A stretch of 64,000 nt of DNA from Acidobacteriota bacterium (lineage in GTDB: Bacteria > Acidobacteriota > CAIWXX01): contig JBFMAF010000038.1 of the NCBI GenBank assembly GCA_040755995.1, forward strand, positions 1,593 to 65,592. Reading direction: 5' to 3'. Positions within the stretch are counted from its first letter, which is position 1; each line of letters opens with the position of its first letter. Of this stretch, positions 16,138 to 28,446 are shown in pieces. The translations under genes and the position numbers were made by a program. The notes beneath the pieces are model-generated. The model was not told where the DNA came from, did not search any database, and worked only from the letters and a program-made list of their open reading frames with translations.

Positions 16138-17403
16138 ATGGAAGCGTCCAATCGACCTGAGTACTTGAGGAAGCACTTCTATCTGGATTGCGGATTCGCC
16201 ACGCGTGCCCTGCACGCCGGCGAGCACATCGGGCAACCGCATTTCACGAATCACACCAACGCCATCTTTCAAACATCGACATTCACATTCGAGACGGCAA
16301 AGGACGGTGCGGACCTGTTCGCCGCTCGGAAGGAGGGCTTCGTCTACACGCGCATGGGCAACCCGACGGTGCTCGTGCTCGAAGCGAAGCTCGCGGCCCT
16401 CGAAGGCTGCTCGTACAAGCTGGCGCACCCCGAGAAGACCGTGTCGTGCATCGCGTTTTCCTCGGGGATGGCCGCCATCTCCTCCACGATGATGGCCATG
16501 CTGCGCCCCGGCGACACCTTGATCGCCGGGCAGGTTCTCTATGGTGCCACGGAGGATTTCTTCCGGACCGTGCTGCAGCCGCTCGGGATACGCTGGGTGC
16601 CGATCGAGACATCGGACCTGGACCTTGTGGAGGCCGCGTTGCGCGAGCACGAGCGCGCACGTGCCGTCTACTTCGAGACGCCGACCAATCCCTTGATGGG
16701 GGTCACCGACATCCGGGCGCTATCGAATCTCGTGCGCAGCGTCAGGCCCGACTGCCACATTGTCGTGGACAACACGTTCGCTACGCCGTTCCTGCAGAGA
16801 CCGCTGGAGCTCGGCGCAGACGTGGTGCTGCATTCCACGACCAAGTACATCTGCGGGCACGGTACCGTGATCGGTGGAGCCGTCATCACGGTGGACGACC
16901 AGGTGCGCGCGCACCTCTACCACATGATGAAAGACTTCGGCGGCTGCCCGTCGCCGTTTGATGCGTGGCTCGTGAACACGGGCTTGAAGACACTGCCCCT
17001 GCGAATGCGCCAGCATTGCGCCAACGCCCAGGGCATCGCCGAGTTCCTCGAGCGGCACCCGAAGGTGGATCGCGTCTTCTACCCGGGGCTGCCCTCCTCG
17101 CCACAGCACGATCTCGCGAAGAGGCAAATGAGCGGGTTCGGGGGTATTCTGTCCTTTGAACTCAATGGCGGCTACGGGGCTGCCGAGAAGGTCATGAACG
17201 GCGTGCGGCTGTTCACGCTGGCCGTCTCCCTGGGCTGCGTCGATTCGCTGATCCAGCATCCGGCCTCCATGACCCACGCCATGATTCCGCGTGAAGAGCG
17301 AGAGCGCAGCGGCATCTCCGATGGGCTGCTTCGTCTCTCGGTCGGGGCCGAGGATCTGAACGACCTGCTGGGCGACCTCGAGAGCGCGCTCGGCGGCGCG
17401 TAG
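16138..17403 (+). CDS. PLP-dependent Cys/Met-metabolism enzyme, methionine gamma-lyase / O-acetylhomoserine sulfhydrylase family
   Basis: '...[16 protein letters not shown]...' and the PLP-lysine region '[16 protein letters not shown]'. 421 aa, RBS AAGGAGA. Confidence 0.85.
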
Positions 17404-17674: not shown

Positions 17675-18025
17675 ATGGCTGATCCCTCAAGCGTCGTCTT
17701 CGTCTTCAACTCCTACGGCATGGGCCATACCGAGAATGCCGATCTCAAGCTCGTCCTGGCCAAGAAGGCCCTGACGATTCTGGCGACCATGGAACCGCCG
17801 CCTCGGCGAATCTGCTTCTACGCAGACGGTGTCAAGCTCTGCGTGAGAGGTTCGCCCGTACTGGGCGAGCTCCACGCCCTGATGCGCCTCGGTGTCGAGC
17901 TATTGCTGTGCTCGACCTGCATCGAGGCGCTCGGCCTGAAGGATCACGTGGCCGTCGGGACAGTCGGCGGCATGGACCAGATGATCACGACCATGGTGAG
18001 CGGCAGTCACGTCGTCACACTGTGA
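17675..18025 (+). CDS. DsrE/DsrF(TusD)-like small sulfur-relay-fold protein (tentative)
   Basis: 116 aa. 'VVFVFNSYGMGH', '...LLLCSTCIEALGL...' with conserved Cys, similar to DsrE/DsrF-like proteins. First gene of the long + strand cluster. Confidence 0.45.
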   Translation: MADPSSVVFVFNSYGMGHTENADLKLVLAKKALTILATMEPPPRRICFYADGVKLCVRGSPVLGELHALMRLGVELLLCSTCIEALGLKDHVAVGTVGGMDQMITTMVSGSHVVTL

Positions 18026-18300
18026 CGGCGCGGCATGCAGTAGCGGAAACGCGACCCATCGAGTCGGCATCAGTAGCCTCAGGGCGACAGGGGTCGACCC
18101 TTGTTCGAAGGCCGAATGTCACTAGAACCAGGTTGATCAGACGACTAGCGGTCCTTGGAACCCAGCCCAAAGCCGCTGGCATCGGCTTTGCAAGAGAACG
18201 GGTGGGAGATGAAAGGCGGGCACAGTCGCATGTGTGAGATACGCGATCGTGGCATCAAACGCCGGCGGTGTGCCACGCCGATTCGACAGGAGGAACGATC

Positions 18301-18519
18301 ATGATTGGAAGAAGAGGAAGCAGAGAGGGTGGCCGCCGCGCGGGCGGGCAGGGCCGGGGCGGTCGGGGTCTCGGCCGGATGGGCGGAGCTTTCGCAGCCG
18401 GCCCAGGCGGCAACTGCGTCTGCCAGCAGTGCGGCCATCGCGAGTCACATCAACGCGGAGTGCCCTGCACCGGACGGATGTGTCCCAAGTGCGGCACAGC
18501 CATGACAAGAGAACCATGA
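18301..18519 (+). CDS. Small Gly/Arg-rich protein with a Cys4 zinc ribbon (CVCQQCGHRE...CTGRMCPKCG)
   Basis: RBS CAGGAGG. Zn ribbon homologous to the C-terminal fusion on the 13774-14325 protein. Confidence 0.5.
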   Translation: MIGRRGSREGGRRAGGQGRGGRGLGRMGGAFAAGPGGNCVCQQCGHRESHQRGVPCTGRMCPKCGTAMTREP

Positions 18520-18549
18520 CGACATAGCGATGACAAGGAGAACAACATC

Positions 18550-18924
18550 ATGCCAAGAGGTGACAGAACGGGGCCCGTGGGGATGGGTCCGATGACGGGG
18601 CGCGCTGCAGGGTACTGCGCGGGGCTCGGTGTGCCCGGCTATTCGAATCCCGCTCCCGGACGGATGTTCCGGGCGGGAGTCGGAATGGGCGGAGGAGGAC
18701 TGGGCCGCGGGTTCGGCGGCGGTGGTCGCGGATGGCGACACTGGTTCCACGCCACTGGTCTGCCCGGTTGGATGCGATTCGGTGGGTGGGCGGCACCCTA
18801 CGCGAAGCCTGACCGCGAATCGGAGAGGCGCACACTGCGGAATGAAGCACAGGCCTTGAAGGCCACCCTGGACTCGATCCAGAGTCGACTCTCCGAGCTG
18901 GAGGCCGGTCCAGACAAGCCGTGA
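18550..18924 (+). CDS. DUF5320-family protein (MPRGDRTGPVGMGPMTGRAAGYCAG..., WRHWFHATGLPGWMRFGG, coiled-coil C-terminus)
   Basis: RBS AAGGAGAA. The N-terminal 'MPRGD.TGP.GMGPMTGR..GYC' is the hallmark of DUF5320. Paralog of 14280-14621. Confidence 0.7.
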   Translation: MPRGDRTGPVGMGPMTGRAAGYCAGLGVPGYSNPAPGRMFRAGVGMGGGGLGRGFGGGGRGWRHWFHATGLPGWMRFGGWAAPYAKPDRESERRTLRNEAQALKATLDSIQSRLSELEAGPDKP

Positions 18925-18995
18925 ACCCGTGGAGAGGAATCCGTACCGGTGACTCTGACCACCAGTCCGAAGCAAGACGCTGCGGGGAGGATACG

Positions 18996-19358
18996 ATGAA
19001 GATTGCCTTCAGTACGTCGGGGCAGACCCTCGATGCCCCTCTGGACGGGCGTTTCGGCCGGGCGCCGAGGTTCCTCGTGTACGACGTCGAGCGTGCCGAT
19101 TTCAAGATCGTCGACAACACACAGGCATTCGATGCGATGCAAGGAGCAGGCGTCCAGGCGGCGGAGACAGTCACACGTGCAGGGGCGGGCTGCGTTGTGA
19201 CGGGGCACTGCGGGCCGAAGGCCTTCCGGGTCCTCTCTGCTGCCGGCATCGAGGTCTACACGACCGGCGCAGCCAGCGTGGCCGAGGCCCTGGAGCTCTT
19301 CCGCTCTGGGAAGCTCGTGCCCGCCACGGGTCCGGACGTGGATGGGCACTGGGCATGA
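18996..19358 (+). CDS. NifX/NifB-type dinitrogenase FeMo-cofactor-binding domain protein
   Basis: 'MKIAFSTSG..LDAPLDGRFGRAPRFLVYDVE...GAGCVVTGHCGPKAFRVLSAAGIEVYT' is a textbook NifX-like signature. Start chosen at the internal ATG with RBS GGGGAGG. Confidence 0.8.
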   Translation: MKIAFSTSGQTLDAPLDGRFGRAPRFLVYDVERADFKIVDNTQAFDAMQGAGVQAAETVTRAGAGCVVTGHCGPKAFRVLSAAGIEVYTTGAASVAEALELFRSGKLVPATGPDVDGHWA

Positions 19359-19882
19359 GGGCGACCGACCGAACTCTTCGGAGCGTCACTTACAAGCCGA
19401 TCGGCACAGTGCGGAGCGAGCATCGAGATCCCGAGCGGACGCCGATCCAGCCGACCCATGCGAGAGGTTGCAGGGGCCGCCTGCAGATTCGCCCGGAGGT
19501 GGCCGCAGGACTGAAGGACCTGGACGGTTTCTCTCACATCCTGCTGATCTACCACCTTCACAAGGCAGGCGGGCCGATGCTGACGGTGAGGCCGTTCATG
19601 GACGAGGCTGAAAGAGGTGTCTTTGCGACGAGGCATCCACGGCGCCCGAACGCCATCGGCATCAGCGTCGTGCGGCTTGTTCGGATCGAAGGTGAGACTT
19701 TGTACGTCGACGATCTGGACATTCTCGACGGCACGCCACTGCTCGACATCAAACCCTTCGTCCGCAGGTTCGACACGGTCGGGACCTCCCGTGACGGATG
19801 GGCGGGGCGGGTGGATGAGAGGACGGCCAGGCTGAGGGGTCGCAGAGGTTGTCGAAGGAGCCGGTCATCGGACCGGCGTTGA
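19355..19882 (+). CDS. TsaA/TrmO (YaeB, UPF0066) family tRNA-methyltransferase-like protein
   Basis: 'GFSHILLIYHLHK', 'GVFATRHPRRPNAIGISVVRLVRIEGETLYVDDLDILDGTPLLDIKPF'. ATG overlaps the upstream stop (ATGA). Confidence 0.75.
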   Translation: MRATDRTLRSVTYKPIGTVRSEHRDPERTPIQPTHARGCRGRLQIRPEVAAGLKDLDGFSHILLIYHLHKAGGPMLTVRPFMDEAERGVFATRHPRRPNAIGISVVRLVRIEGETLYVDDLDILDGTPLLDIKPFVRRFDTVGTSRDGWAGRVDERTARLRGRRGCRRSRSSDRR

Positions 19883-19887
19883 CGACG

Positions 19888-20766
19888 ATGAGCAAGAAAT
19901 TCGTCATCGCGGTTGCCTCGGGAAAGGGCGGGACGGGCAAGACGACCGTGGCTGTCAATCTTGCCCGTGTGCTGCCGGACCCGGTGCAGCTGATGGACTG
20001 CGACGTCGAGGAGCCGAACTGCCATCTGTTCCTGGACGGGGCGACCAGGGGCCAGGAGGAGGTCCATATCCCAGTGCCCGCAGTTGACGAGTCGCTCTGC
20101 GATGCCTGCGGCGAATGCAGCCGGATTTGCCAGTACCATGCCATCGTGTCGCTCAAGACCAAGCCTCTCCTGTTCCACGACCTCTGCCACGGATGTGGCG
20201 GATGTGCACGGGTCTGCCCTCCAGGTGCGATCCGCGAAGTGGGCCACCGCATCGGGGTCATCGAGACGTCGACGTCGGATCGCATCACCCTGATCCAGGG
20301 GCGGCTGGACGTCGGTGTCCCAACTGCCCCGCCGTTGATCCGCGCCGTGAGGGACCGTCGCCGGGACGACATGCCTGCCATTCTGGATGCGCCGCCCGGA
20401 ACCTCGTGCCCGGTCATCACGACCGTCAGAGACTCGGACTTCGTGCTGCTTGTCGCCGAGCCGACCCCGTTCGGATTGCACGACCTGGAGCTGGCGATCG
20501 AGCTTGTGCGGCAGCTGCGGATACCGTTCGGAGTCATGGTCAATCGTGCGGGGTCTGGAGACGAACGCGTTCGCACGCTCTGCCAAGACGAAGGAATCGA
20601 GATACTGCTGGAAGTGCCGGAAGATCGTAGAGTCGCCGAGAGCTGCTCGAGAGGCGAGATCCTGGTGGATGTGCTGCCGGAGTACCGGCGGCTCTTCGTG
20701 CGGCTGCTGGAGACGGTCCTGGAGCGGTGCAACCGGGCAGAAGGAGCCAGACATGCCCACGTATGA
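19888..20766 (+). CDS. MinD/ParA-superfamily P-loop ATPase with inserted 4Fe-4S dicluster ferredoxin domain
   Basis: Deviant Walker A 'SGKGGTGKTT'. Two CxxCxxCxxxCP motifs (CDACGECSRICQYHAI; CHGCGGCARVCPPGAI). Confidence 0.8.
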   Translation: MSKKFVIAVASGKGGTGKTTVAVNLARVLPDPVQLMDCDVEEPNCHLFLDGATRGQEEVHIPVPAVDESLCDACGECSRICQYHAIVSLKTKPLLFHDLCHGCGGCARVCPPGAIREVGHRIGVIETSTSDRITLIQGRLDVGVPTAPPLIRAVRDRRRDDMPAILDAPPGTSCPVITTVRDSDFVLLVAEPTPFGLHDLELAIELVRQLRIPFGVMVNRAGSGDERVRTLCQDEGIEILLEVPEDRRVAESCSRGEILVDVLPEYRRLFVRLLETVLERCNRAEGARHAHV

Positions 20767-21016
20767 GTATGAGTGCGGGAGATGCGGTCACAGGTTCGAG
20801 CGCATGCAGTCAATCACCGATGCGCCTCTCGAACGATGCCCCGAGTGCGACGGAGAGATCCGGCGCCTGGTGAGCGGCGGGGCCGGGTTCATCATCAAGG
20901 GGGGCGAGGCGGGTCGCCCCGGTTCTCACGCAGGCGACTGCGCTATCGAGCAGCGCGGGCAGACCTGCTGCGGCCGTGAGGAGCGGTGCGACAAGCCGCC
21001 GTGCGGGGGCAGATGA
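20753..21016 (+). CDS. FmdB-family zinc-ribbon small protein with Cys-rich C-terminal tail
   Basis: 'MPTYEYECGRCGHRFE...CPECDG' is the FmdB (CxxC..CxxC) signature. Tail '...GDCAIEQRGQTCCGREERCDKPPCGG'. RBS GAAGGAG. Confidence 0.7.
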   Translation: MPTYEYECGRCGHRFERMQSITDAPLERCPECDGEIRRLVSGGAGFIIKGGEAGRPGSHAGDCAIEQRGQTCCGREERCDKPPCGGR

Positions 21017-21969
21017 TCACACAGCATGCGGCCGGGCACGTCTACGGTCCCGTCTCTTCACGACGTCTGGGCAGATCCCTTGGCGTGGACCTGGTCCCCT
21101 TCAAGACCTGCACGTATGATTGTGTCTACTGCCAGTTGGGCCGCACCACAGACAAGACGACGGTTCGTACCGAATACGTGCCGGCCGATATGGTGTTCGA
21201 TGAGCTGCAGGCAAAATTGGCGACCACGAAGGCTGTCGACCATGTGACAATCGCCGGTTCCGGCGAGCCGACATTGAACTCCCGGGTGGGCGATCTCGTC
21301 ACAAGGATCAAGGCCCTCACGAGCATCCCGCTGGCCGTCCTGACAAACGGATCGCTCCTGTGGATCCGCGACGTGCAAGACGCACTCATGGACGCAGACC
21401 TGGTCCTCCCCTCGCTCGACGCCGGCGACGAGAACCTCTTCAGGTACGTGAACCGACCGCACAGCGACATTCGCTTCGCGACGATGGTCGATGGCCTCGT
21501 GCAATTCAGGGAGCGCTTCTCCGGACGTCTCTGGCTCGAGGTGTTCCTGCTCGGAGGGGTCACGGGAATCCGCCCGGAGGTCGAGAGGATCGCGGCGCTT
21601 GTGCAGCGGATTCGACCTGAGCGAGTCCAGCTCAACTCCGTCTCTCGGCCTCCATGCGAGGATTTCGCCTTCCCCGTGCCTGCAAGACAGATGGAGGGGT
21701 TCGCAGATCTGTTCGAAGTAGGTGCTGAAGTCGTCTGCGTCGAAAGAGGCGAAGGGGAAGGTGAGATTGTGGAGGCGAGTTCGGTGACCGACGAGGCGAT
21801 CCTGGCCCTGCTGAAGAGACGGCCGTGCACCGCCAGAGGGGTCGCTAGGGGGCTCGGCATCCATCTCAGCGATGCGACCAAACGATTGCACCGGCTGGCG
21901 CAGCAGACCGAGGTCAGACTGCTCCGCAGGCACAGGAGACTCTTCTACTGGGTCGACAACACACCATGA
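21013..21969 (+). CDS. Radical SAM protein (CTYDCVYC). ATG at 21013 overlapping the FmdB stop is preferred; the track ORF starts at 20986.
   Basis: 'YGPVSSRRLGRSLGVDLVPFKTCTYDCVYCQLG' is a CxxxCxxC core with the upstream GPV.SRRLG motif seen in small COG0731-type radical SAM enzymes. Confidence 0.8.
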   Translation: MITQHAAGHVYGPVSSRRLGRSLGVDLVPFKTCTYDCVYCQLGRTTDKTTVRTEYVPADMVFDELQAKLATTKAVDHVTIAGSGEPTLNSRVGDLVTRIKALTSIPLAVLTNGSLLWIRDVQDALMDADLVLPSLDAGDENLFRYVNRPHSDIRFATMVDGLVQFRERFSGRLWLEVFLLGGVTGIRPEVERIAALVQRIRPERVQLNSVSRPPCEDFAFPVPARQMEGFADLFEVGAEVVCVERGEGEGEIVEASSVTDEAILALLKRRPCTARGVARGLGIHLSDATKRLHRLAQQTEVRLLRRHRRLFYWVDNTP

Positions 21970-22898
21970 CCAGAGAGCTTGTCGTCGTGAGCGGCAAAGG
22001 CGGAACAGGGAAGACGAGCCTCGCCGCGTCCTTCGCGGCCCTGGCGCGCCGTCCGGTGATCGCGGACTGCGATGTCGATGCGGCGGACCTGCATCTGGTT
22101 CTGACACCGCGAGTCGTCGAACGGCACGAGTTCTGGAGCGGCCACGAGGCCGTGGTCCGAACGGCGGACTGCACACTCTGCGGTGCCTGTCTCGGGGACT
22201 GCGGCTATGGAGCGATCAGGATGGAAAACCAGCAGGACGGCAGGGCGACCTTCTCGGTGGATCCTCTGTCGTGCGAGGGGTGCGGTGTCTGCGTGCGATT
22301 CTGCCCGGCACAGGCGATGGATTTCCGCGAGAGATTGTGCGGCGAGTGGATGGTGTCGGAAACCCGCTGCGGACCGATGGTCCACGCACAGTTGGGGATC
22401 GCCGCCGAGAACTCCGGCAAGCTCGTCTCGACCGTCCGGCGCGCGGCGCGCCGCATCGCCGAGGACAACGGTCATCCCCTGGTCATCGTCGATGGGCCGC
22501 CGGGGATCGGATGCCCGGTCATTGCGTCGATCACCGGCGCGGATGCCGTGCTGGTGGTCACCGAGCCCACACGGTCCGGAGAACACGATCTTCGACGAGT
22601 AATCGAGCTGTCTCGTCACTTTCAGATCCCCTCGTGGGTGTGCGTGAACAAGAGCGACATCAATCCTGAGCTGACGGTGCGAATCGAGGCGGAGGCACGG
22701 AGCATGGGATGTGAGGTCGCCGGGCGGATTCCCTGGGATCCGTCCGTCACCGGCGCCCAGCTCGCAGGCGCCTCCGTGGTCGAGTACGGCAACGGACCCG
22801 CCGCCAGCGGCATCCGGAGCATCTGGGAGAGGCTGGAGCATGTCGTTCTGCTCGGAGCCCCTGGTGAAAGGAAACTCGCTGCGGCGGCGGAATCTTGA
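21966..22898 (+). CDS. Second MinD/ParA-type P-loop ATPase with 4Fe-4S dicluster domain
   Basis: 'SGKGGTGKTS'. 'CTLCGACLGDCGYGAI' and 'CEGCGVCVRFCPAQAM'. ATG overlaps the radical-SAM stop. Confidence 0.8.
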   Translation: MTRELVVVSGKGGTGKTSLAASFAALARRPVIADCDVDAADLHLVLTPRVVERHEFWSGHEAVVRTADCTLCGACLGDCGYGAIRMENQQDGRATFSVDPLSCEGCGVCVRFCPAQAMDFRERLCGEWMVSETRCGPMVHAQLGIAAENSGKLVSTVRRAARRIAEDNGHPLVIVDGPPGIGCPVIASITGADAVLVVTEPTRSGEHDLRRVIELSRHFQIPSWVCVNKSDINPELTVRIEAEARSMGCEVAGRIPWDPSVTGAQLAGASVVEYGNGPAASGIRSIWERLEHVVLLGAPGERKLAAAAES

Positions 22899-24069
22899 TG
22901 CCGTCGAGGAGGATGTGCGACGCTGCCTTCACCGGGACCTGCGCCATTTCTGGTTCATCTGCTCGGAGCTGAACAACCTCGGCCGCGAATTCGCCCTCGT
23001 CCTGGCGGAGCGGATGCTGCGGATGAACGAGCAACGCGGCTCCGACCGGTTCACGTGGAAGTCGTACATGTTGCCGCGCTCGTTCTCGCAGAGCGATTTC
23101 GATCTCCTCTACAGATCGGGGTTCGTCACGACGTGGAATCCGGTCGAGTCGTTCGATGACGCCCAGCTCGCCCTGTCGCGCTCGCCCTACAGCGCGCGCG
23201 ACGCGTCGCTCTTCCTGGGGCGCGACTTTCGCGCGAGAAGGAAGCACGGTCGCTTGCCGCCATTGCCTGTGTCTATCTTCCTGGGCGACCAGCACCTGAC
23301 CCCGGAGTCGCTCTCGCGTTGCGTCCAGCGCTTCAACCGCGAGCGCCTCTGGAGAGTCTGCGGCGGCGCAGTGGCAGTCCACGCCCTTCGCGTCTGGGAC
23401 TTCGAATCCCAGGGCGTACCGGAAGGGGAGGCGGTCACGTTCGCTCCCGAGGGGACTGGACGCCTCGATCTCGCCCACCCAACGTATCACTTTCCGGCGG
23501 AACTGCTGCGCGACTTCGGCAGCCGCGAGGCCGTGATGGTCCTCCACGATCGTCTCCTCTCGACGTTCTTCTCGCATGGGCACCGGAATCGGCCGGAGTG
23601 GTGCCGGTTCCTGGCTCGACACGCATCGCCCACCACACTGCATCGGGAATTGCTGCGCATCGGAAGCGAGGCCGTGCTCAAGGATCCTTCCGTCGAAACG
23701 CTTCGCGATCTCATGACGCCGTCACGCGACAACGAGGCGAGCTGCGAGGCCGTGGCAGAGCGCCTGCTCGGACTGCTCCGGCGGGCGTATCGACGGGACC
23801 TCGAGCGGATCTACCGGTTCCTGGAGATTCCCTCCGACCGGCGGGGGAGGATTGCGATCGACGAGTACGACCTGCACGAAATTCTTTATCGGAAGTTCGA
23901 GACCACGGAAGGGCTCCTAGCCGCCGTGAAACGGCGGTTCCGCCAGCGAACCGGCTCGACGCTCCTCCTGCTGTTTCGTTCAGAGCTCCATCGCCGAAAC
24001 GTCCTGCTGGACCCGCTGCACAGGAAATGGATCTTCCGGCATCTCGACCGACCAGGTTCATCGATATGA
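22840..24069 (+). CDS. Hypothetical protein resembling the post-Cys-motif half of a B12-binding radical SAM enzyme, but lacking the B12 domain and the CxxxCxxC triad
   Basis: 'SLRRRNLDAVEEDVRRCLHRDLRHFWFICSELNN' aligns by eye with 'RKTRYHSVERVLDEIEYVSRKGLRRFWFADPSF' of the bona fide B12-rSAM at 46048-47352. The start overlaps the MinD gene end. Weak call. Confidence 0.35.
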   Translation: MSFCSEPLVKGNSLRRRNLDAVEEDVRRCLHRDLRHFWFICSELNNLGREFALVLAERMLRMNEQRGSDRFTWKSYMLPRSFSQSDFDLLYRSGFVTTWNPVESFDDAQLALSRSPYSARDASLFLGRDFRARRKHGRLPPLPVSIFLGDQHLTPESLSRCVQRFNRERLWRVCGGAVAVHALRVWDFESQGVPEGEAVTFAPEGTGRLDLAHPTYHFPAELLRDFGSREAVMVLHDRLLSTFFSHGHRNRPEWCRFLARHASPTTLHRELLRIGSEAVLKDPSVETLRDLMTPSRDNEASCEAVAERLLGLLRRAYRRDLERIYRFLEIPSDRRGRIAIDEYDLHEILYRKFETTEGLLAAVKRRFRQRTGSTLLLLFRSELHRRNVLLDPLHRKWIFRHLDRPGSSI

Positions 24070-24752
24070 CGACACACGCCATCATCGGAGGAATGGGGCC
24101 GCTCGCCTCGGCCGCGTTCCTACAAACCATCTACGAAAATCACGGCTGGGATCGCGAGCAGGAGCTGCCGGATATCCTGCTCCATTCGCTTTCCTCGGTC
24201 CCCGACCGCACTTCCACCTTGCTGTCCGGGCGGGACGATCTCCTCCTCGAACGCCTGCGGTGCGCGCTGCGGCAGGTCAACCTGCTTGATCCCGCATCGA
24301 TCGTGATCTGCTGCGTGACGTCTCATCATCTCCTCGACCGCCTGCCGGAGGAGATTCTGCCGAAGATCATCTCGCTCACCGACACGGCGCTGAAGACCGT
24401 TGCGGCGAAAGGCGAGCGCGCACTTCTCCTGGCCACCCGCGCCACCTATGAGCTGCGCGTCTTCGAACGGAGCCGGCACTACGCGGCGGCCGCGCCGCTG
24501 ATCGTGACACCCGAGCCGGCGGATCAGGAGCGCGTGCACGCGATGATCTATGACGATCTCAAGAAAGGCCGGCGGATCGCAGAAACAGCCGACGCACTTG
24601 CGGCCATGACCGCGCGGTACGGAGTCGGCGCGTTCATCGCCGGCTGCACCGAATTCCATCTGGTGACGCGTCATCTCCGGAAGAACCGCGTGGCGACGCC
24701 TTCCTTTATCGATCCGCTGATGACGATCGCTGACAAGGAGATGAGGGCATGA
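24066..24752 (+). CDS. Asp/Glu/hydantoin racemase family protein (aspartate racemase-like)
   Basis: 'IGGMGPLASAAF', 'CCVTSHH', 'AGCTEFHL' are the two catalytic-Cys motifs of the family. ATG in frame inside the long track ORF. Confidence 0.7.
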   Translation: MTTHAIIGGMGPLASAAFLQTIYENHGWDREQELPDILLHSLSSVPDRTSTLLSGRDDLLLERLRCALRQVNLLDPASIVICCVTSHHLLDRLPEEILPKIISLTDTALKTVAAKGERALLLATRATYELRVFERSRHYAAAAPLIVTPEPADQERVHAMIYDDLKKGRRIAETADALAAMTARYGVGAFIAGCTEFHLVTRHLRKNRVATPSFIDPLMTIADKEMRA

Positions 24753-26605
24753 GTCCGGCTTACTCGAACGCCACTCTGCGGGAGAGGATCGTCGAGCTCG
24801 TCGGGGACGTCTCGGGGCTCAGTCCCTCCTCGATCGATCCAAACGCCAACTTCTTCAGCCTCGGACTGAACTCCCTGATGTTCATGCAAATCCGGGACCG
24901 GATCGAGAGGGAGCTCGGCGTCGAGCTTGCGGTGAGCCAGTTCACTAACGATGTCTCAACGCTGGTGAAGCTGACCGGATACCTGGAGGAGCGGCTCGCA
25001 CTCGTTCCTTCCTCCGAATCTCAGCCGCCGCCAGTTCCGGATCGCTCCGATCAGACCGGACGGACTGGGGAGACTTCCCTCGACCTTTCATCACTCTCGG
25101 GGCTCGATACGCTCTTTCGCCGCCAGCTCGATGTACTGGAGCGGCAGAACGAGATCCTGCTCTCCGCCTTCCTCAACGGCGGCGGTGCGGCCCCCGCTCC
25201 GTCCCGCCCCGCGCCGGCTCCCCCCGGGAAGGCCTACGTTCCCTTCAAGGCGATCGTGACGTCGCGTTCCTCCGGCGTTGCCCAGGAGCATGTCGAAGCA
25301 CTCGCGCGGCTCCTGGGCGAGAAGTGCAAGTCGACGAAGGACCTTACCCAGAAGCATCGTCGCGTCTTCGGCAATAATCGCGCCATCGCCGGGTTCCGGC
25401 CAGATTGGAAGGAGATGGTCTATCCGCTCATCGCCGCCCGTGCGGACGGCTCGCGGATCTGGGATCCTGACGGGAACGAATACATCGACCTCACTATGGG
25501 CTTCGGCGTGGCGCTCTTCGGCCACAACCCCGCGTTCGTGATGGAGGCGATCCGGGCGGAGCTCGCAAACGGCATGCCACTCGGCCCGCTCTCGCCGCTG
25601 GCGGGGGAGGTTGCGGAGCTCATCGCCGAGCTTACCGGAGTCGAGCGCGTGGCCTTCTTCAACTCGGGTACCGAGGCCGTGATGGTGGCACTCAGGCTCG
25701 CCCGGACTGTGACTGGCCGCGCCAGGGTCGCGATCTTCTCGGGTTCCTTTCATGGAAGCTTCGACGGCATACTTGCGATCCGCGGCGCGGGCGGCAGGAC
25801 GCTGCCCATGCTGCCGGGCAGTCCCGCGGGCATCGTCGCCGATGTCATCGTTCTCGACTACGACGATCCGGCCTCGCTGGATTACGTGGCGGCGCACGGC
25901 GGGGAGCTGGCAGCGGTCCTCGTCGAACCGGTGCAGAGCCGTCATGTCGAGATCCAGCCGCGCGACTTCCTGCACCGGCTCAGGGAGCTGACCGCCGCGT
26001 CCGGAACCGCGCTGATCTTCGACGAGGTCATCACTGGCTTCCGGATCCATCCGGGCGGCGCGCAGGCCAGGTTCGACGTGCGCGCTGACATCGTAACCTA
26101 CGGCAAGATCATCGGCGGCGGGCTTCCGATTGGGATCGTGGCCGGTCGCGCCGAATTCATCGACGCGGTGGACGGAGGGATGTGGCAATACGGCGACGAA
26201 TCCTATCCCGCGAAGAAGAACACCTTCGTGTCTGGGACCTTCTGCCACCATCCCCTCGCGATGGCCGCCGCGCGCGCCGTGCTTCTTCACCTCAGGAGAG
26301 AGGGCCCGAAGCTCCAGGAGGACCTGAATCAGCGCACCGCGGCGTTCGTGACCCGCATGGCCGATCTGTTCAGGGACAGGAGCTGGCCGATCCGCATCGC
26401 CTGCTTCGGCTCGCTCTTCAGGATGGATCTCATGCCGGATCACGAGCTCCTCTACTACCACCTGCTTGACAAGGGCGTCTATGTCTGGGAGGGCCGCAAC
26501 TGCTTCCTCTCGACCGCGCATTCAGACGGCGACATCGAAGCGATCGAAACGGCGATCCGCGCATCCGCGGAGGCCATCGAGCGGGCCGGGCTCTTCCACC
26601 ACTGA
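24749..26605 (+). CDS. Fusion of an N-terminal acyl/peptidyl carrier protein domain to a class-III (glutamate-1-semialdehyde aminomutase-like) PLP aminotransferase
   Basis: N-terminus 'FFSLGLNSLMFMQIRDRIE' (PP-binding, Asn instead of the usual Asp before the Ser). Body 'FNSGTEAVMVALRLAR', 'FDEVITGFR', 'YGKIIGGGLPIG' (PLP-Lys region). ATG overlaps the racemase stop. Confidence 0.8.
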   Translation: MSPAYSNATLRERIVELVGDVSGLSPSSIDPNANFFSLGLNSLMFMQIRDRIERELGVELAVSQFTNDVSTLVKLTGYLEERLALVPSSESQPPPVPDRSDQTGRTGETSLDLSSLSGLDTLFRRQLDVLERQNEILLSAFLNGGGAAPAPSRPAPAPPGKAYVPFKAIVTSRSSGVAQEHVEALARLLGEKCKSTKDLTQKHRRVFGNNRAIAGFRPDWKEMVYPLIAARADGSRIWDPDGNEYIDLTMGFGVALFGHNPAFVMEAIRAELANGMPLGPLSPLAGEVAELIAELTGVERVAFFNSGTEAVMVALRLARTVTGRARVAIFSGSFHGSFDGILAIRGAGGRTLPMLPGSPAGIVADVIVLDYDDPASLDYVAAHGGELAAVLVEPVQSRHVEIQPRDFLHRLRELTAASGTALIFDEVITGFRIHPGGAQARFDVRADIVTYGKIIGGGLPIGIVAGRAEFIDAVDGGMWQYGDESYPAKKNTFVSGTFCHHPLAMAAARAVLLHLRREGPKLQEDLNQRTAAFVTRMADLFRDRSWPIRIACFGSLFRMDLMPDHELLYYHLLDKGVYVWEGRNCFLSTAHSDGDIEAIETAIRASAEAIERAGLFHH

Positions 26606-26649
26606 GAGCTACCGAGGCCACGCCCTCCACGTCAACGCCCGTTTCCGTC

Positions 26650-26668
26650 GTCAACAACGGTTGACATC
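26650..26668. promoter_or_regulatory. Motif GTCAAC-N4-GTTGACATC (contains -35-like TTGACA). Recurs at 62541-62559, with a wider-spaced variant at 62388-62434.
   Basis: Exact recurrence read from the sequence in two intergenic regions. Confidence 0.3.
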
Positions 26669-26707
26669 CTGAAGGGCCGGCCCGTTCCAAGGTTCCAAGA
26701 CCAAGGC

Positions 26708-26736
26708 TTGACGTCCGAGGCGATTTGTCCTAGATT
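26708..26736 (+). promoter_or_regulatory. Candidate sigma70-type promoter for the ABC exporter: TTGACG, 17-nt spacer, TAGATT
   Basis: -35/-10-like hexamers with canonical spacing about 65 nt upstream of the 26800 start, in a 190-nt intergenic gap after a long coupled operon. Confidence 0.35.
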
Positions 26737-26799
26737 CGTCAAATGTTCACGACCGAAATCGAAGTCATTGGATTATTCTAGCGCTGGCGTGGCCGTCCA

Positions 26800-28446
26800 T
26801 TGAGAGCCCTCGGACCGATCTCGCGACTTTATCAATTCGTGGTGAAGGAGTCGCCGGAGTCTTGGAAACTCGTTCTCTACATGGCGCTCCTATCCGGAAT
26901 CGCCAATGGGGTGCTTCTGGGCGTCATCAATGCCGGAGCATTGGCGGCCTCCTCGGACTCGACGAGCTTGCGCCTGCTGCTGCTTTTCGCCATTGCAATG
27001 ACGGTCTTCGTGATGGCGAAGAAGATGGCTCTCGTCCGCTCCACAATCACCGTCGAGCGGCTGGTGAAGCGGCTTCGGATAAGGGTCTCTGACAAGATCC
27101 GGAAGTGCAAGTACGTCCTGTTGGAATCGCTCGGTCGCGGAGATCTCTATACGAAGATCTCGCAGGACACCAACTTCATCTCCCAGGCCTCCCACGTCAT
27201 CATCAACGCTGCTCAAGAGGCGGTCGTCGTGGTGTTCTGCCTGGTGTACATTGCCACACTATCGTTTGCGGCCTGCTTCGTCACAGTCATCTCCATCTTG
27301 CTCGCTGTCTACATCTATTACTACCATCAGAGGGCGCTCCTGGCTGACCTCAAGGAGTGGACGAGACGTGAAGCCGTCATGTTGGATTCGCTGGGGCACC
27401 TCGTCGACGGATTCAAAGAGGTCAAGGTTAACCGGAAGCGGAGCGACTCCTTGTTCGACTCGATCAAGTTCATCGCTGCGGATGCTGAGACCCTGAGGAG
27501 CAAGACCGGCATTCGGTTCGTGACCGATGTCATGTTCGCCCAGGTGTTCTTCTACCTCCTGATCGCCACGATCATCTTTCTTCTGCCTCGACTCGTGCCG
27601 ACTTACGCCGATGTGGTGATCAGGACGACTGCGGCGATCCTCTTCATCATCGGTCCGCTGGAGGCGGTGGTGAGCGCCGCCCCGATCCTTTCGCGAGCGA
27701 ACGTTGCCCTCGATAACCTGTACAAGCTCGAGGATCTTCTCGACACGGCCCAGGAAGATGGGGAACCGGTGATGGCGGAGGGCTTTTCGGGATTCCGGGA
27801 GATTCACGTCCGAAGCCTCGTTTTCAGCTATCTCGATCCGGCCGGCGTGCCCACGTTCACGATCGGGCCGATCACGTTTTCTCTCCCTCGCGGCCAGATG
27901 CTGTTCATTGTCGGAGGGAATGGGACGGGCAAGTCGACCTTTCTCAAGCTGCTCACCGGTCTCTATTATCCGAGGCAGGGGCTGATCAGAGTCGACGATC
28001 AGGAGATCCACCCGGGCAACCTGGCGGCCTATCGGGATCTCTTCTCGCCCATTTACTCGGACTTTCATCTCTTCGACCGTCTCTATGGATTGGAAGATAT
28101 CGAAGAGAGCAAGGTCACGGCGTTGCTCAGCGAGATGGAACTAGAGGGGAAGACGGAGTACCTCCATGGCAAGTTCTCGACGCAAAACCTTTCCTCCGGC
28201 CAGCGCCGTCGCCTCGCGCTCATCGTCTCGCTCCTCGAAGACAAAGACGTCTACGTCTTCGATGAGTGGGCCGCGGACCAGGATCAACGTTTCCGGAGGC
28301 ATTTTTACGAAGTCATCCTGCGGGATCTCAAATCGAGGGGCAAAACGGTCGTCGTCATCACCCACGATGATCGGTACTGGAGCACGGCCGATCGACTCAT
28401 CAAGATGGATTACGGAGAGATGGTCGAACAGGACGGCCTCGGCTAG
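26800..28446 (+). CDS. Fused permease-ATPase ABC exporter of the cyclic-peptide/siderophore-peptide transporter type (SyrD/PvdE-like, TIGR01194-like)
   Basis: N-terminal 6-TM domain. Walker A 'GGNGTGKST', signature 'LSSGQRRRL', Walker B 'VYVFDEWAADQD'. 548 aa. Confidence 0.8.
   Translation: MRALGPISRLYQFVVKESPESWKLVLYMALLSGIANGVLLGVINAGALAASSDSTSLRLLLLFAIAMTVFVMAKKMALVRSTITVERLVKRLRIRVSDKIRKCKYVLLESLGRGDLYTKISQDTNFISQASHVIINAAQEAVVVVFCLVYIATLSFAACFVTVISILLAVYIYYYHQRALLADLKEWTRREAVMLDSLGHLVDGFKEVKVNRKRSDSLFDSIKFIAADAETLRSKTGIRFVTDVMFAQVFFYLLIATIIFLLPRLVPTYADVVIRTTAAILFIIGPLEAVVSAAPILSRANVALDNLYKLEDLLDTAQEDGEPVMAEGFSGFREIHVRSLVFSYLDPAGVPTFTIGPITFSLPRGQMLFIVGGNGTGKSTFLKLLTGLYYPRQGLIRVDDQEIHPGNLAAYRDLFSPIYSDFHLFDRLYGLEDIEESKVTALLSEMELEGKTEYLHGKFSTQNLSSGQRRRLALIVSLLEDKDVYVFDEWAADQDQRFRRHFYEVILRDLKSRGKTVVVITHDDRYWSTADRLIKMDYGEMVEQDGLG

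Follow-up and report, generated by a model that had tools for sequence, protein, structure and literature searches.

In Desulfovibrio vulgaris, the orange protein (ORP) system includes the MinD-ferredoxins Orp3 and Orp4, the orange protein Orp8, and MrpORP (Orp9), which has been demonstrated experimentally to transfer Fe-S clusters to Orp3/Orp4 (PMC6345978). The Desulfovibrio genes are arranged in the operons orp3-orp4-orp5 and orp7-orp8-orp9, and the system is conserved in strict anaerobes (PMC6345978, PMC8359166), and expression of the orp operons is confined to very low redox potential (PMC8359166). No zinc-ribbon protein or radical S-adenosylmethionine (SAM) enzyme is named in the D. vulgaris operons (PMC6345978, PMC8359166), whereas both are encoded between the MinD-ferredoxin genes of an ORP-type cluster in the 64,000-nucleotide stretch of DNA analyzed here (Acidobacteriota bacterium, GenBank assembly GCA_040755995.1, contig JBFMAF010000038.1, positions 1,593 to 65,592 of the forward strand; referred to below as the window). 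The gene of interest, at positions 20753 to 21016 of the window, encodes a small protein (the peptide) in which an FmdB-type zinc ribbon is followed by a cysteine-rich tail, and the gene for the radical SAM enzyme (rSAM) lies directly downstream. Comparison with related proteins and loci suggests that the peptide is a cytoplasmic metal- or cluster-binding accessory of ORP/Fe-S trafficking, with a thiolate tail that would hand over the cargo and with rSAM acting on the cargo or as a partner. We assign this reading a probability of roughly 0.55. The gene and its parts are as follows.

20753 to 21016 (+), Cys-tailed FmdB-type zinc-ribbon gene, 87 amino acids, stop codon included in the coordinates; from the open reading frame (ORF) list, family matches, and full-length conservation
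20753 to 20875 (+), residues 1 to 41, zinc ribbon CxxC-x17-CxxC (C8, C11, C29, C32); matched by PF09723 over residues 1 to 40 and by TIGR02605 over residues 1 to 51
20876 to 20938 (+), residues 42 to 62, conserved SGGAGFI segment followed by a variable Gly/Arg-rich linker; from alignments and the AlphaFold2 (AF2) model
20939 to 21013 (+), residues 63 to 87, conserved Cys tail C63-x8-C72C73G-x4-C79-x4-C84, consensus CSLEQxGxTCCGRxERCGKPPCG; from alignments

The 87-codon ORF (MPTYEYECGRCGHRFERMQSITDAPLERCPECDGEIRRLVSGGAGFIIKGGEAGRPGSHAGDCAIEQRGQTCCGREERCDKPPCGGR) starts with the ATG at 20753, which has GGAG ahead of it, and stops with the TGA at 21014 to 21016. The encoded protein begins with MPTYEYECGRCG...CPECDG and ends with ...CAIEQRGQTCCGREERCDKPPCGGR. 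An earlier reading of the window from the sequence alone had described these ends as an FmdB ribbon and a Cys-rich tail, a description with which both the ORF and the family matches agree. The N-terminal 41 to 51 residues, counted from the initiator methionine, carry the CxxC-x17-CxxC pattern of the FmdB family and scored above the cutoffs for PF09723 (Zn_ribbon_8; 62.4 bits versus a cutoff of 34.4) and TIGR02605 (CxxC_CxxC_SSSS; 71.4 bits versus 31.3). A 76-kb contig of an Acidobacteriota metagenome-assembled genome carries an annotated protein with the identical sequence, and the 87-residue gene is confirmed as real, far beyond chance.

More than 800 relatives of the peptide were matched at an E value of ≤1e-3 in 5.8 billion proteins. 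The 119 best-scoring relatives were 81 to 97 residues long and shared 56 to 77% identity with the query at 97 to 100% query coverage. In the alignment of these 119 sequences, C63, C72, G74, C79, and C84 were invariant and G69, T71, C73, R75, R78, and P82 were conserved in at least 90%; residues ~50 to 62 were weakly conserved and variable in length. Pooling the tails of proteins and loci gave 225 unique sequences, all with the CC pair and the Cys at +7, and 212 of these tails had five Cys. None had fewer than four, so that every one of the 225 retained the at least four conserved thiolates taken as the mark of metal or Fe-S ligands. An extra Cys, at +17 or +18, was often present in tails that lacked the Cys at −9. 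Thiolates thus move along the tail without a change in their number, which is the behavior expected of ligands. Tailed relatives span many phyla with the CCG-x4-C core invariant, and the tail is not degenerate.

Searched alone against Pfam at an E value of ≤10, the tail matched no family, SPASM and CCG included. A profile search for relatives of the peptide among Protein Data Bank (PDB) sequences gave only C2H2 zinc-finger and L32 matches, which were rejected as spurious, and none for the tail. A tail-only profile found 41 matches in 1.84 billion representative sequences, nearly all of them at the C termini of proteins of 43 to 91 residues that were mostly of the FmdB type. Three singletons (P0250, P0278, and P0279) had other N termini and are possible frame or assembly artifacts; in P0279 the tail module follows an N terminus that is not a ribbon. 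The 41 matches included no informative case of the tail fused to another domain. Four of the matched proteins (P0254, P0263, P0266, and P0269) represent a second ribbon subtype, which begins MPIYEY, has a shorter linker, and carries the TCCGRxERCxxPPC core with an extra C-terminal Cys (...GxCxR). Thus, the tail module is found on at least two divergent ribbon scaffolds.

In the AF2 model, built from 119 sequences, the ribbon was predicted as three strands with a predicted local distance difference test (pLDDT) score of ~86, and residues 43 to 87 had scores of <50 and no secondary structure. Low scores over such a tail are typical of models of metal-binding peptides in the apo form. In the literature, selenoproteins are described among FmdB proteins, the ribbon then carrying UxxU; no description of the Cys-tailed subfamily was found there. 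The Cys-tailed FmdB ribbons are a real and widespread subfamily that is defined by the TCCGRxERCxxPPC tail.

In the 80 loci that were sampled (one genome per species; 47 tailed and 33 ribbon-only), genes of ORP-type clusters accompanied the tailed form and in no case the ribbon-only form. At least one ORP-cluster gene was present in 44 of the 47 tailed loci versus none of the 33 ribbon-only loci (Fisher P = 2e-19). Neighbors were located by tblastn with the genes of the window in 6 to 10 kb of flanking sequence per locus, and unlinked copies elsewhere in the genomes are possible. The proteins from the 33 ribbon-only loci had low-complexity tails rich in Lys, Ser, and Ala. Ordinary members of the FmdB family therefore differ from the Cys-tailed subfamily in having degenerate tails and no ORP neighbors, whereas the subfamily has a conserved tail and a fixed context. 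The sequence-only reading had named grouping with canonical FmdB regulators unrelated to rSAM neighborhoods as an outcome that would refute it; the tailed proteins instead stand apart from generic FmdB proteins, because ribbon-only relatives never occur in this neighborhood. The genes of the window to which the loci were compared are as follows.

21013 to 21969 (+), radical SAM enzyme (rSAM) with a COG0731-type core and a C-terminal winged helix; from PF04055, AF2, and Foldseek
19849 to 20766 (+), upstream neighbor, MinD/ParA-type ATPase with an inserted 2x[4Fe-4S] ferredoxin domain (Orp3/Orp4-like); from domain matches and synteny
21966 to 22898 (+), downstream neighbor, second MinD-ferredoxin ATPase (Orp3/Orp4-like); from domain matches and synteny
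18921 to 19358 (+), NifX-like Di-Nase protein, ORP homologue; PF02579, 81 bits; PDB entry 2WFB, E = 1.4e-19
18550 to 18924 (+), DUF5320 protein; PF17253, 86 bits; syntenic
19355 to 19882 (+), TrmO/TsaA-like SAM-binding protein; PF01980, 133 bits, and TIGR00104, 113 bits; syntenic
18268 to 18519 (+), small Cys-rich ORF without a family, probably first in the operon; C-terminal 40 residues kept in 23 of 47 tailed loci

The likeness to the ORP complex lies in the ORP homologue, for which the best PDB match was the orange protein of Desulfovibrio gigas (2WFB), the two MinD-ferredoxin ATPases (CbiA/ParA plus Fer4), and the DUF5320 protein. The presence of the ORP homologue together with the MinD-ferredoxin pair identifies the locus as an ORP-type cluster. 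Mrp/NBP35 and NifU genes were not found in the 64-kb window (Mrp at an E value of ≤1e-20), and many related loci have Mrp/NBP35 as well. The canonical gene order in related loci was small Cys ORF, DUF5320, NifX-like, TrmO-like, MinD-ferredoxin, peptide, rSAM, and MinD-ferredoxin, often with NifU_N and Mrp/NBP35 genes further downstream. Mrp/NBP35 genes were present in 25 of the 47 tailed loci and NifU_N genes in 12; neither was present in any of the 33 controls. According to record titles, tailed loci came from Acidobacteriota, Aminicenantes, NC10, Thermodesulfobacteriota/Syntrophales, Planctomycetota, Verrucomicrobiota, Spirochaetota, Omnitrophota, Clostridia, and others.

The position of the peptide gene between two MinD-ferredoxin genes (19849 to 20766 and 21966 to 22898) and the overlap of its stop codon with the start of rSAM, both pointed out in the sequence-only reading, were recovered. 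The TGA of the peptide gene and the ATG at 21013 to 21015 in the rSAM frame share a 4-nt ATGA. The rSAM ORF as listed begins at a GTG at 20986, but the ATG at 21013 is the more probable start because homologues are 314 to 318 residues long. The upstream MinD-ferredoxin ORF overlaps the start of the peptide gene by 14 nt, and the stop codon of rSAM and the start of the second MinD-ferredoxin gene at 21966 again form an ATGA overlap. At the junctions from the DUF5320 gene (18550) through the second MinD-ferredoxin gene (22898), reading frames overlap by 4 to 14 nt, and the small Cys ORF lies 30 nt upstream of the DUF5320 gene. No sigma-70-like promoters or intrinsic terminators were found within 18268 to 22898. 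With overlapping frames and no internal promoter or terminator, this region reads as one operon.

Counts restricted to the 26 tailed loci in which the peptide gene had 3 kb or more of sequence on each side gave rSAM in 18, the MinD-ferredoxins in 20, and the ORP homologue in 19. Thus, rSAM was no more common near the peptide than the MinD-ferredoxins or the ORP homologue. In five loci without rSAM (L005, L009, L014, L028, and L034), a gene for a NUBPL/Mrp-NBP35 Fe-S carrier ATPase (PF10609, 314 to 338 bits) lay within ~0.5 kb of the peptide gene, as its immediate neighbor in four and with one gene between in L034. In another such locus (L020), the neighbors were the TrmO-like gene and a NifU_N scaffold gene, and NifX-like genes were also found near the peptide in loci without rSAM. 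The genes that consistently accompany the peptide encode carriers and scaffolds for Fe-S or metal clusters.

Some loci have additional genes. In four loci of Smithella/Syntrophales (L012, L017, L029, and L033), genes for two class I SAM methyltransferases and for a small DnaJ-like protein separate the rSAM gene from that of the second MinD-ferredoxin, at ~+1.2 to +3.2 kb from the peptide. One of these methyltransferases is also encoded in L018, and in L025 the slot of this insert is occupied by FeoA/FeoB. In the Smithella/Syntrophales tails, Ala replaces the Arg after CCG (TCCGA...).

The linkage between the peptide and rSAM is frequent but not obligate. The rSAM gene was directly downstream of the peptide gene in ~20 of the 47 peptide-anchored loci, and a tailed peptide was directly upstream of rSAM in 23 of 70 rSAM-anchored metagenomic loci with enough flanking sequence; the two genes nearly always abutted or overlapped. 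The pair was also found without MinD-ferredoxin genes (L001, L120, and L142), and cultured Thermacetogenium phaeum DSM 12270 (L161, KI912609.1, 81102 to 97365) has a three-gene operon of DUF5320, peptide, and rSAM. On the opposite strand upstream of the T. phaeum operon are genes for a metallo-beta-lactamase-fold protein, a MOSC-domain protein, a second DUF5320 protein, and a NUBPL/Mrp ATPase. T. phaeum could serve as a host for experiments, and the MOSC domain may provide a link to molybdenum and sulfur chemistry.

Each gene of the pair can also be found without the other. In five loci (L003, L004, L006, L010, and L021), the second MinD-ferredoxin gene directly follows the peptide gene and rSAM is absent, and in four others (L005, L020, L028, and L038) there was no rSAM within a 10-kb flank on each side. 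In L002, all that is left of rSAM is a 48-residue remnant (residues 9 to 56, including the CxxxCxxC region) at +278 to +421 from the peptide start, between the intact peptide gene and the second MinD-ferredoxin gene. L045 has a remnant of residues 11 to 54, again including the CxxxCxxC region, at +3107 to +3238. These remnants look like in situ decay of rSAM with retention of the peptide. The conservation of the tail in syntenic loci had been proposed in the sequence-only reading as a check on the peptide; the tail is indeed kept, and its consensus was the same in loci with a nearby rSAM, without one, or with only a remnant. Conversely, five loci (L089, L091, L115, L132, and L145) have the order MinD-ferredoxin, rSAM, MinD-ferredoxin with no room for a peptide, and in total 42 of the 70 rSAM loci had no peptide in the examined flanks.

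On a neighbor-joining tree of rSAM with 96 leaves, the presence of a nearby peptide required at least 22 state changes versus 32 ± 2.6 under random labeling. This indicates a phylogenetic signal, yet many independent gains or losses. No column of the rSAM alignment clearly separated peptide-linked from peptide-less enzymes, with the largest difference in the frequency of the major residue being ~0.3, and the same four Cys were conserved in both groups.

The rSAM family has at least 8,000 relatives. Its only Pfam match was PF04055; NCBIfam matches were weak and below threshold, and SPASM and PqqD were not matched in Pfam. Relatives carry the Joint Genome Institute (JGI) label wyosine synthetase, which is the name of COG0731, but this assignment was not supported (27.7 bits for the TYW1 model versus a cutoff of 318). 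The conserved cysteines are the CxxxCxxC triad (C33, C37, and C40) and the single C272, and rSAM thus lacks a SPASM or twitch auxiliary-cluster domain. The AF2 model of rSAM (pLDDT, 77) has a partial TIM barrel and a C-terminal domain of three helices and a hairpin. This domain was predicted as a canonical winged helix (pLDDT, 73 to 89), not as the strand-first topology of the recognition element (RRE) of ribosomally synthesized and posttranslationally modified peptides (RiPPs), and some homologues matched TrmB or HTH_20. Foldseek returned only generic radical SAM cores with template modeling (TM) scores of ~0.5, with pyruvate formate-lyase (PFL)-activating enzyme at the top, NifB, and viperin. 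No sequence homologue of rSAM was found in the PDB.

In the reading that we favor, the peptide would consist of a folded zinc (or iron) ribbon, a flexible Gly-rich linker, and a C-terminal motif of four to five Cys that would be disordered without its ligand. The tail would ligate a metal ion or a metal-sulfide/Fe-S cluster on a swinging arm for which the ribbon serves as the anchor. The cargo could then be held by, or passed among, the MinD-ferredoxins and Mrp/NBP35, which are P-loop carrier ATPases, the NifU-like scaffold, and the ORP/NifX-like carrier. With rSAM encoded directly downstream, the two proteins would be made in fixed proportion, and rSAM probably acts on the cargo of the tail or uses the peptide as a partner. 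We infer the binding of a metal or cluster, the hand-over role, and any interaction with rSAM from the conserved thiolates and the gene neighborhoods. There are functional analogies for such an arrangement. The mercury-methylation ferredoxin HgcB, an example of a Cys-tail metal carrier, has a C-terminal vicinal Cys pair, and Dph3/Kti11 is a small ribbon partner of a radical SAM enzyme. The likeness is confined to terminal Cys that include a CC pair, or to a four-Cys knuckle, serving a partner, and there is no sequence relationship to the peptide.

Several points weigh against this reading. The motif of the tail matches no known cluster-binding family in Pfam or among PDB sequences, and a conserved Cys tail that is predicted to be disordered is equally what the substrate of an enzyme would look like. 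In the most common arrangement, rSAM still directly follows the peptide, and its start codon overlaps the stop codon of the peptide gene. The stand-alone pairs, including that of T. phaeum, point to a specific relationship between the peptide and rSAM that a carrier would explain only loosely. Furthermore, the ORP system itself has no established function (PMC6345978, PMC8359166).

Some of these features would be accommodated if the tail were the substrate of rSAM and were modified, by thioether formation, Cys methylation, methylthiolation, or Cα chemistry, to yield a RiPP-like peptide or a protein-derived cofactor, as in SCIFF, mycofactocin, and pyrroloquinoline quinone (PQQ). Like the precursors of SCIFF and ranthipeptides, the peptide is small, Cys rich, encoded directly upstream of a radical SAM enzyme, and conserved across taxa. 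The coupling of the two genes, both in the window and in most adjacent pairs, where they lie within a few nucleotides of each other, and the occurrence of the pair on its own are consistent with an enzyme and its substrate. G69, T71, R75, R78, and P82 in the disordered tail might serve as recognition elements, and the top structural neighbor of rSAM, PFL-activating enzyme, acts on a protein loop. Conserved precursors exist for cofactor-type RiPPs. However, unlike the maturases of SCIFF and ranthipeptides, rSAM has no SPASM, twitch, PqqD, or RRE match and only one conserved Cys beyond its triad; the N terminus of the peptide is a folded ribbon rather than a leader, no RiPP precursor model in NCBIfam matched it, and the cluster includes no conserved protease or exporter. 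The tail stays intact where rSAM is missing or reduced to a remnant, rSAM occupies the same slot without the peptide, at least 22 changes are needed on the rSAM tree, and no alignment column clearly sets peptide-linked enzymes apart. Thus, it seems unlikely that the tail is a substrate of rSAM. A secreted natural-product RiPP is very unlikely because of the folded N terminus, the lack of a conserved protease or exporter, and the conservation across many phyla. The sequence-only reading had offered a precursor and a cluster carrier side by side; the same observations weakened the former, and the latter, which fits the ORP homologue, MinD-ferredoxins, Mrp/NBP35, and NifU_N as neighbors much better, is favored.

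A further possibility, more doubtful than modification of the tail for its own sake, is that rSAM and the TrmO-like protein, together with the two methyltransferases in Syntrophales, build a new prosthetic group for ORP on the peptide as scaffold or substrate. By analogy with NifB-co on NifB, such a group could be a metal-sulfide cluster bearing a SAM-derived ligand, or it could be a protein-derived thiol cofactor; genomes without rSAM would then use a simpler form of the peptide that is not modified. It is improbable to a still greater degree that the peptide is primarily a partner of rSAM, passing on electrons by means of a rubredoxin-like ribbon loaded with iron, in the manner of Dph3/Kti11 with Dph1-Dph2, or supplying an auxiliary Fe-S cluster in trans through the tail as a split domain. 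The four-Cys knuckle ribbon weakly resembles rubredoxin and HypA, rSAM itself lacks auxiliary-cluster cysteines, the tail has four or five Cys, and the two genes are translationally coupled. However, the ribbon is common to all FmdB proteins, including those of the 33 ribbon-only loci with no cluster genes, rSAM among them, nearby; the peptide and rSAM each occur alone, and the resemblance of the tail to auxiliary-cluster motifs gave no profile match. A transcriptional or other regulatory role, as implied by the historical name FmdB family regulatory protein, is scarcely credible. Inherited annotation speaks for it, but the peptide has no DNA-binding domain, its gene is embedded with overlapping frames in a biosynthetic or carrier operon, and the conserved part that defines the subfamily is a Cys motif.

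If the peptide is a metal- or cluster-binding accessory, the metal or cluster bound by its tail would show which cargo is moved by the MinD-ferredoxin, Mrp, and ORP proteins. The protein is small, abundant, and easily expressed, and its diagnostic motif marks ORP clusters in many phyla, so that it offers a new handle on the ORP system. The FmdB ribbon was already known; the conserved Cys module and the defined system context are new, and they separate a functionally coherent subfamily from the large and uninformative annotation as FmdB regulatory proteins. The locus also serves as a caution that a Cys-rich ORF beside a radical SAM gene is not automatically a RiPP precursor.

The small Cys-rich ORF at 18268 to 18519 (...CVCQQCGHRESHQRGVPCTGRMCPKCGTAMTRE) had no Pfam or NCBIfam match and usually opens the cluster, immediately ahead of the DUF5320 gene. 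It looks like a second uncharacterized, small, zinc-ribbon-like member of ORP-type clusters. The orp operons of Desulfovibrio are sigma-54 dependent. A sigma-54-type −24/−12 element, TGGCATCGGCTTTGCA, was present at 18177 to 18192 (+), 76 nt upstream of this ORF, with one mismatch to TGGCAC-N5-TTGCW, but no comparable element was found ahead of this gene in 33 related loci, and overall the matches within the window were at the level expected by chance.

Two genes lie just upstream of the operon. The product of 17675 to 18025 (+) is DsrE-like and resembles the C-terminal half of YedF, a protein of selenium metabolism (TIGR03527, 69 bits, below the cutoff of 110), and that of 16138 to 17403 (+) reads as a pyridoxal phosphate-dependent enzyme of the Cys/Met metabolism type. 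Neither gene was found in related loci. Downstream of the operon, 22711 to 28446 (+) contains an unrelated-looking set of genes that nothing so far connects to the peptide. The ORF at 22711 to 24069 had a weak match to a model for B12-binding radical SAM enzymes of lipid biosynthesis (34 bits versus a cutoff of 360) and was conserved in none of the related loci. As read from their sequences, 24749 to 26605 encodes a carrier-protein-like N terminus fused to a class III aminotransferase-like protein, and 26800 to 28446 encodes an ATP-binding cassette (ABC) exporter-like protein.

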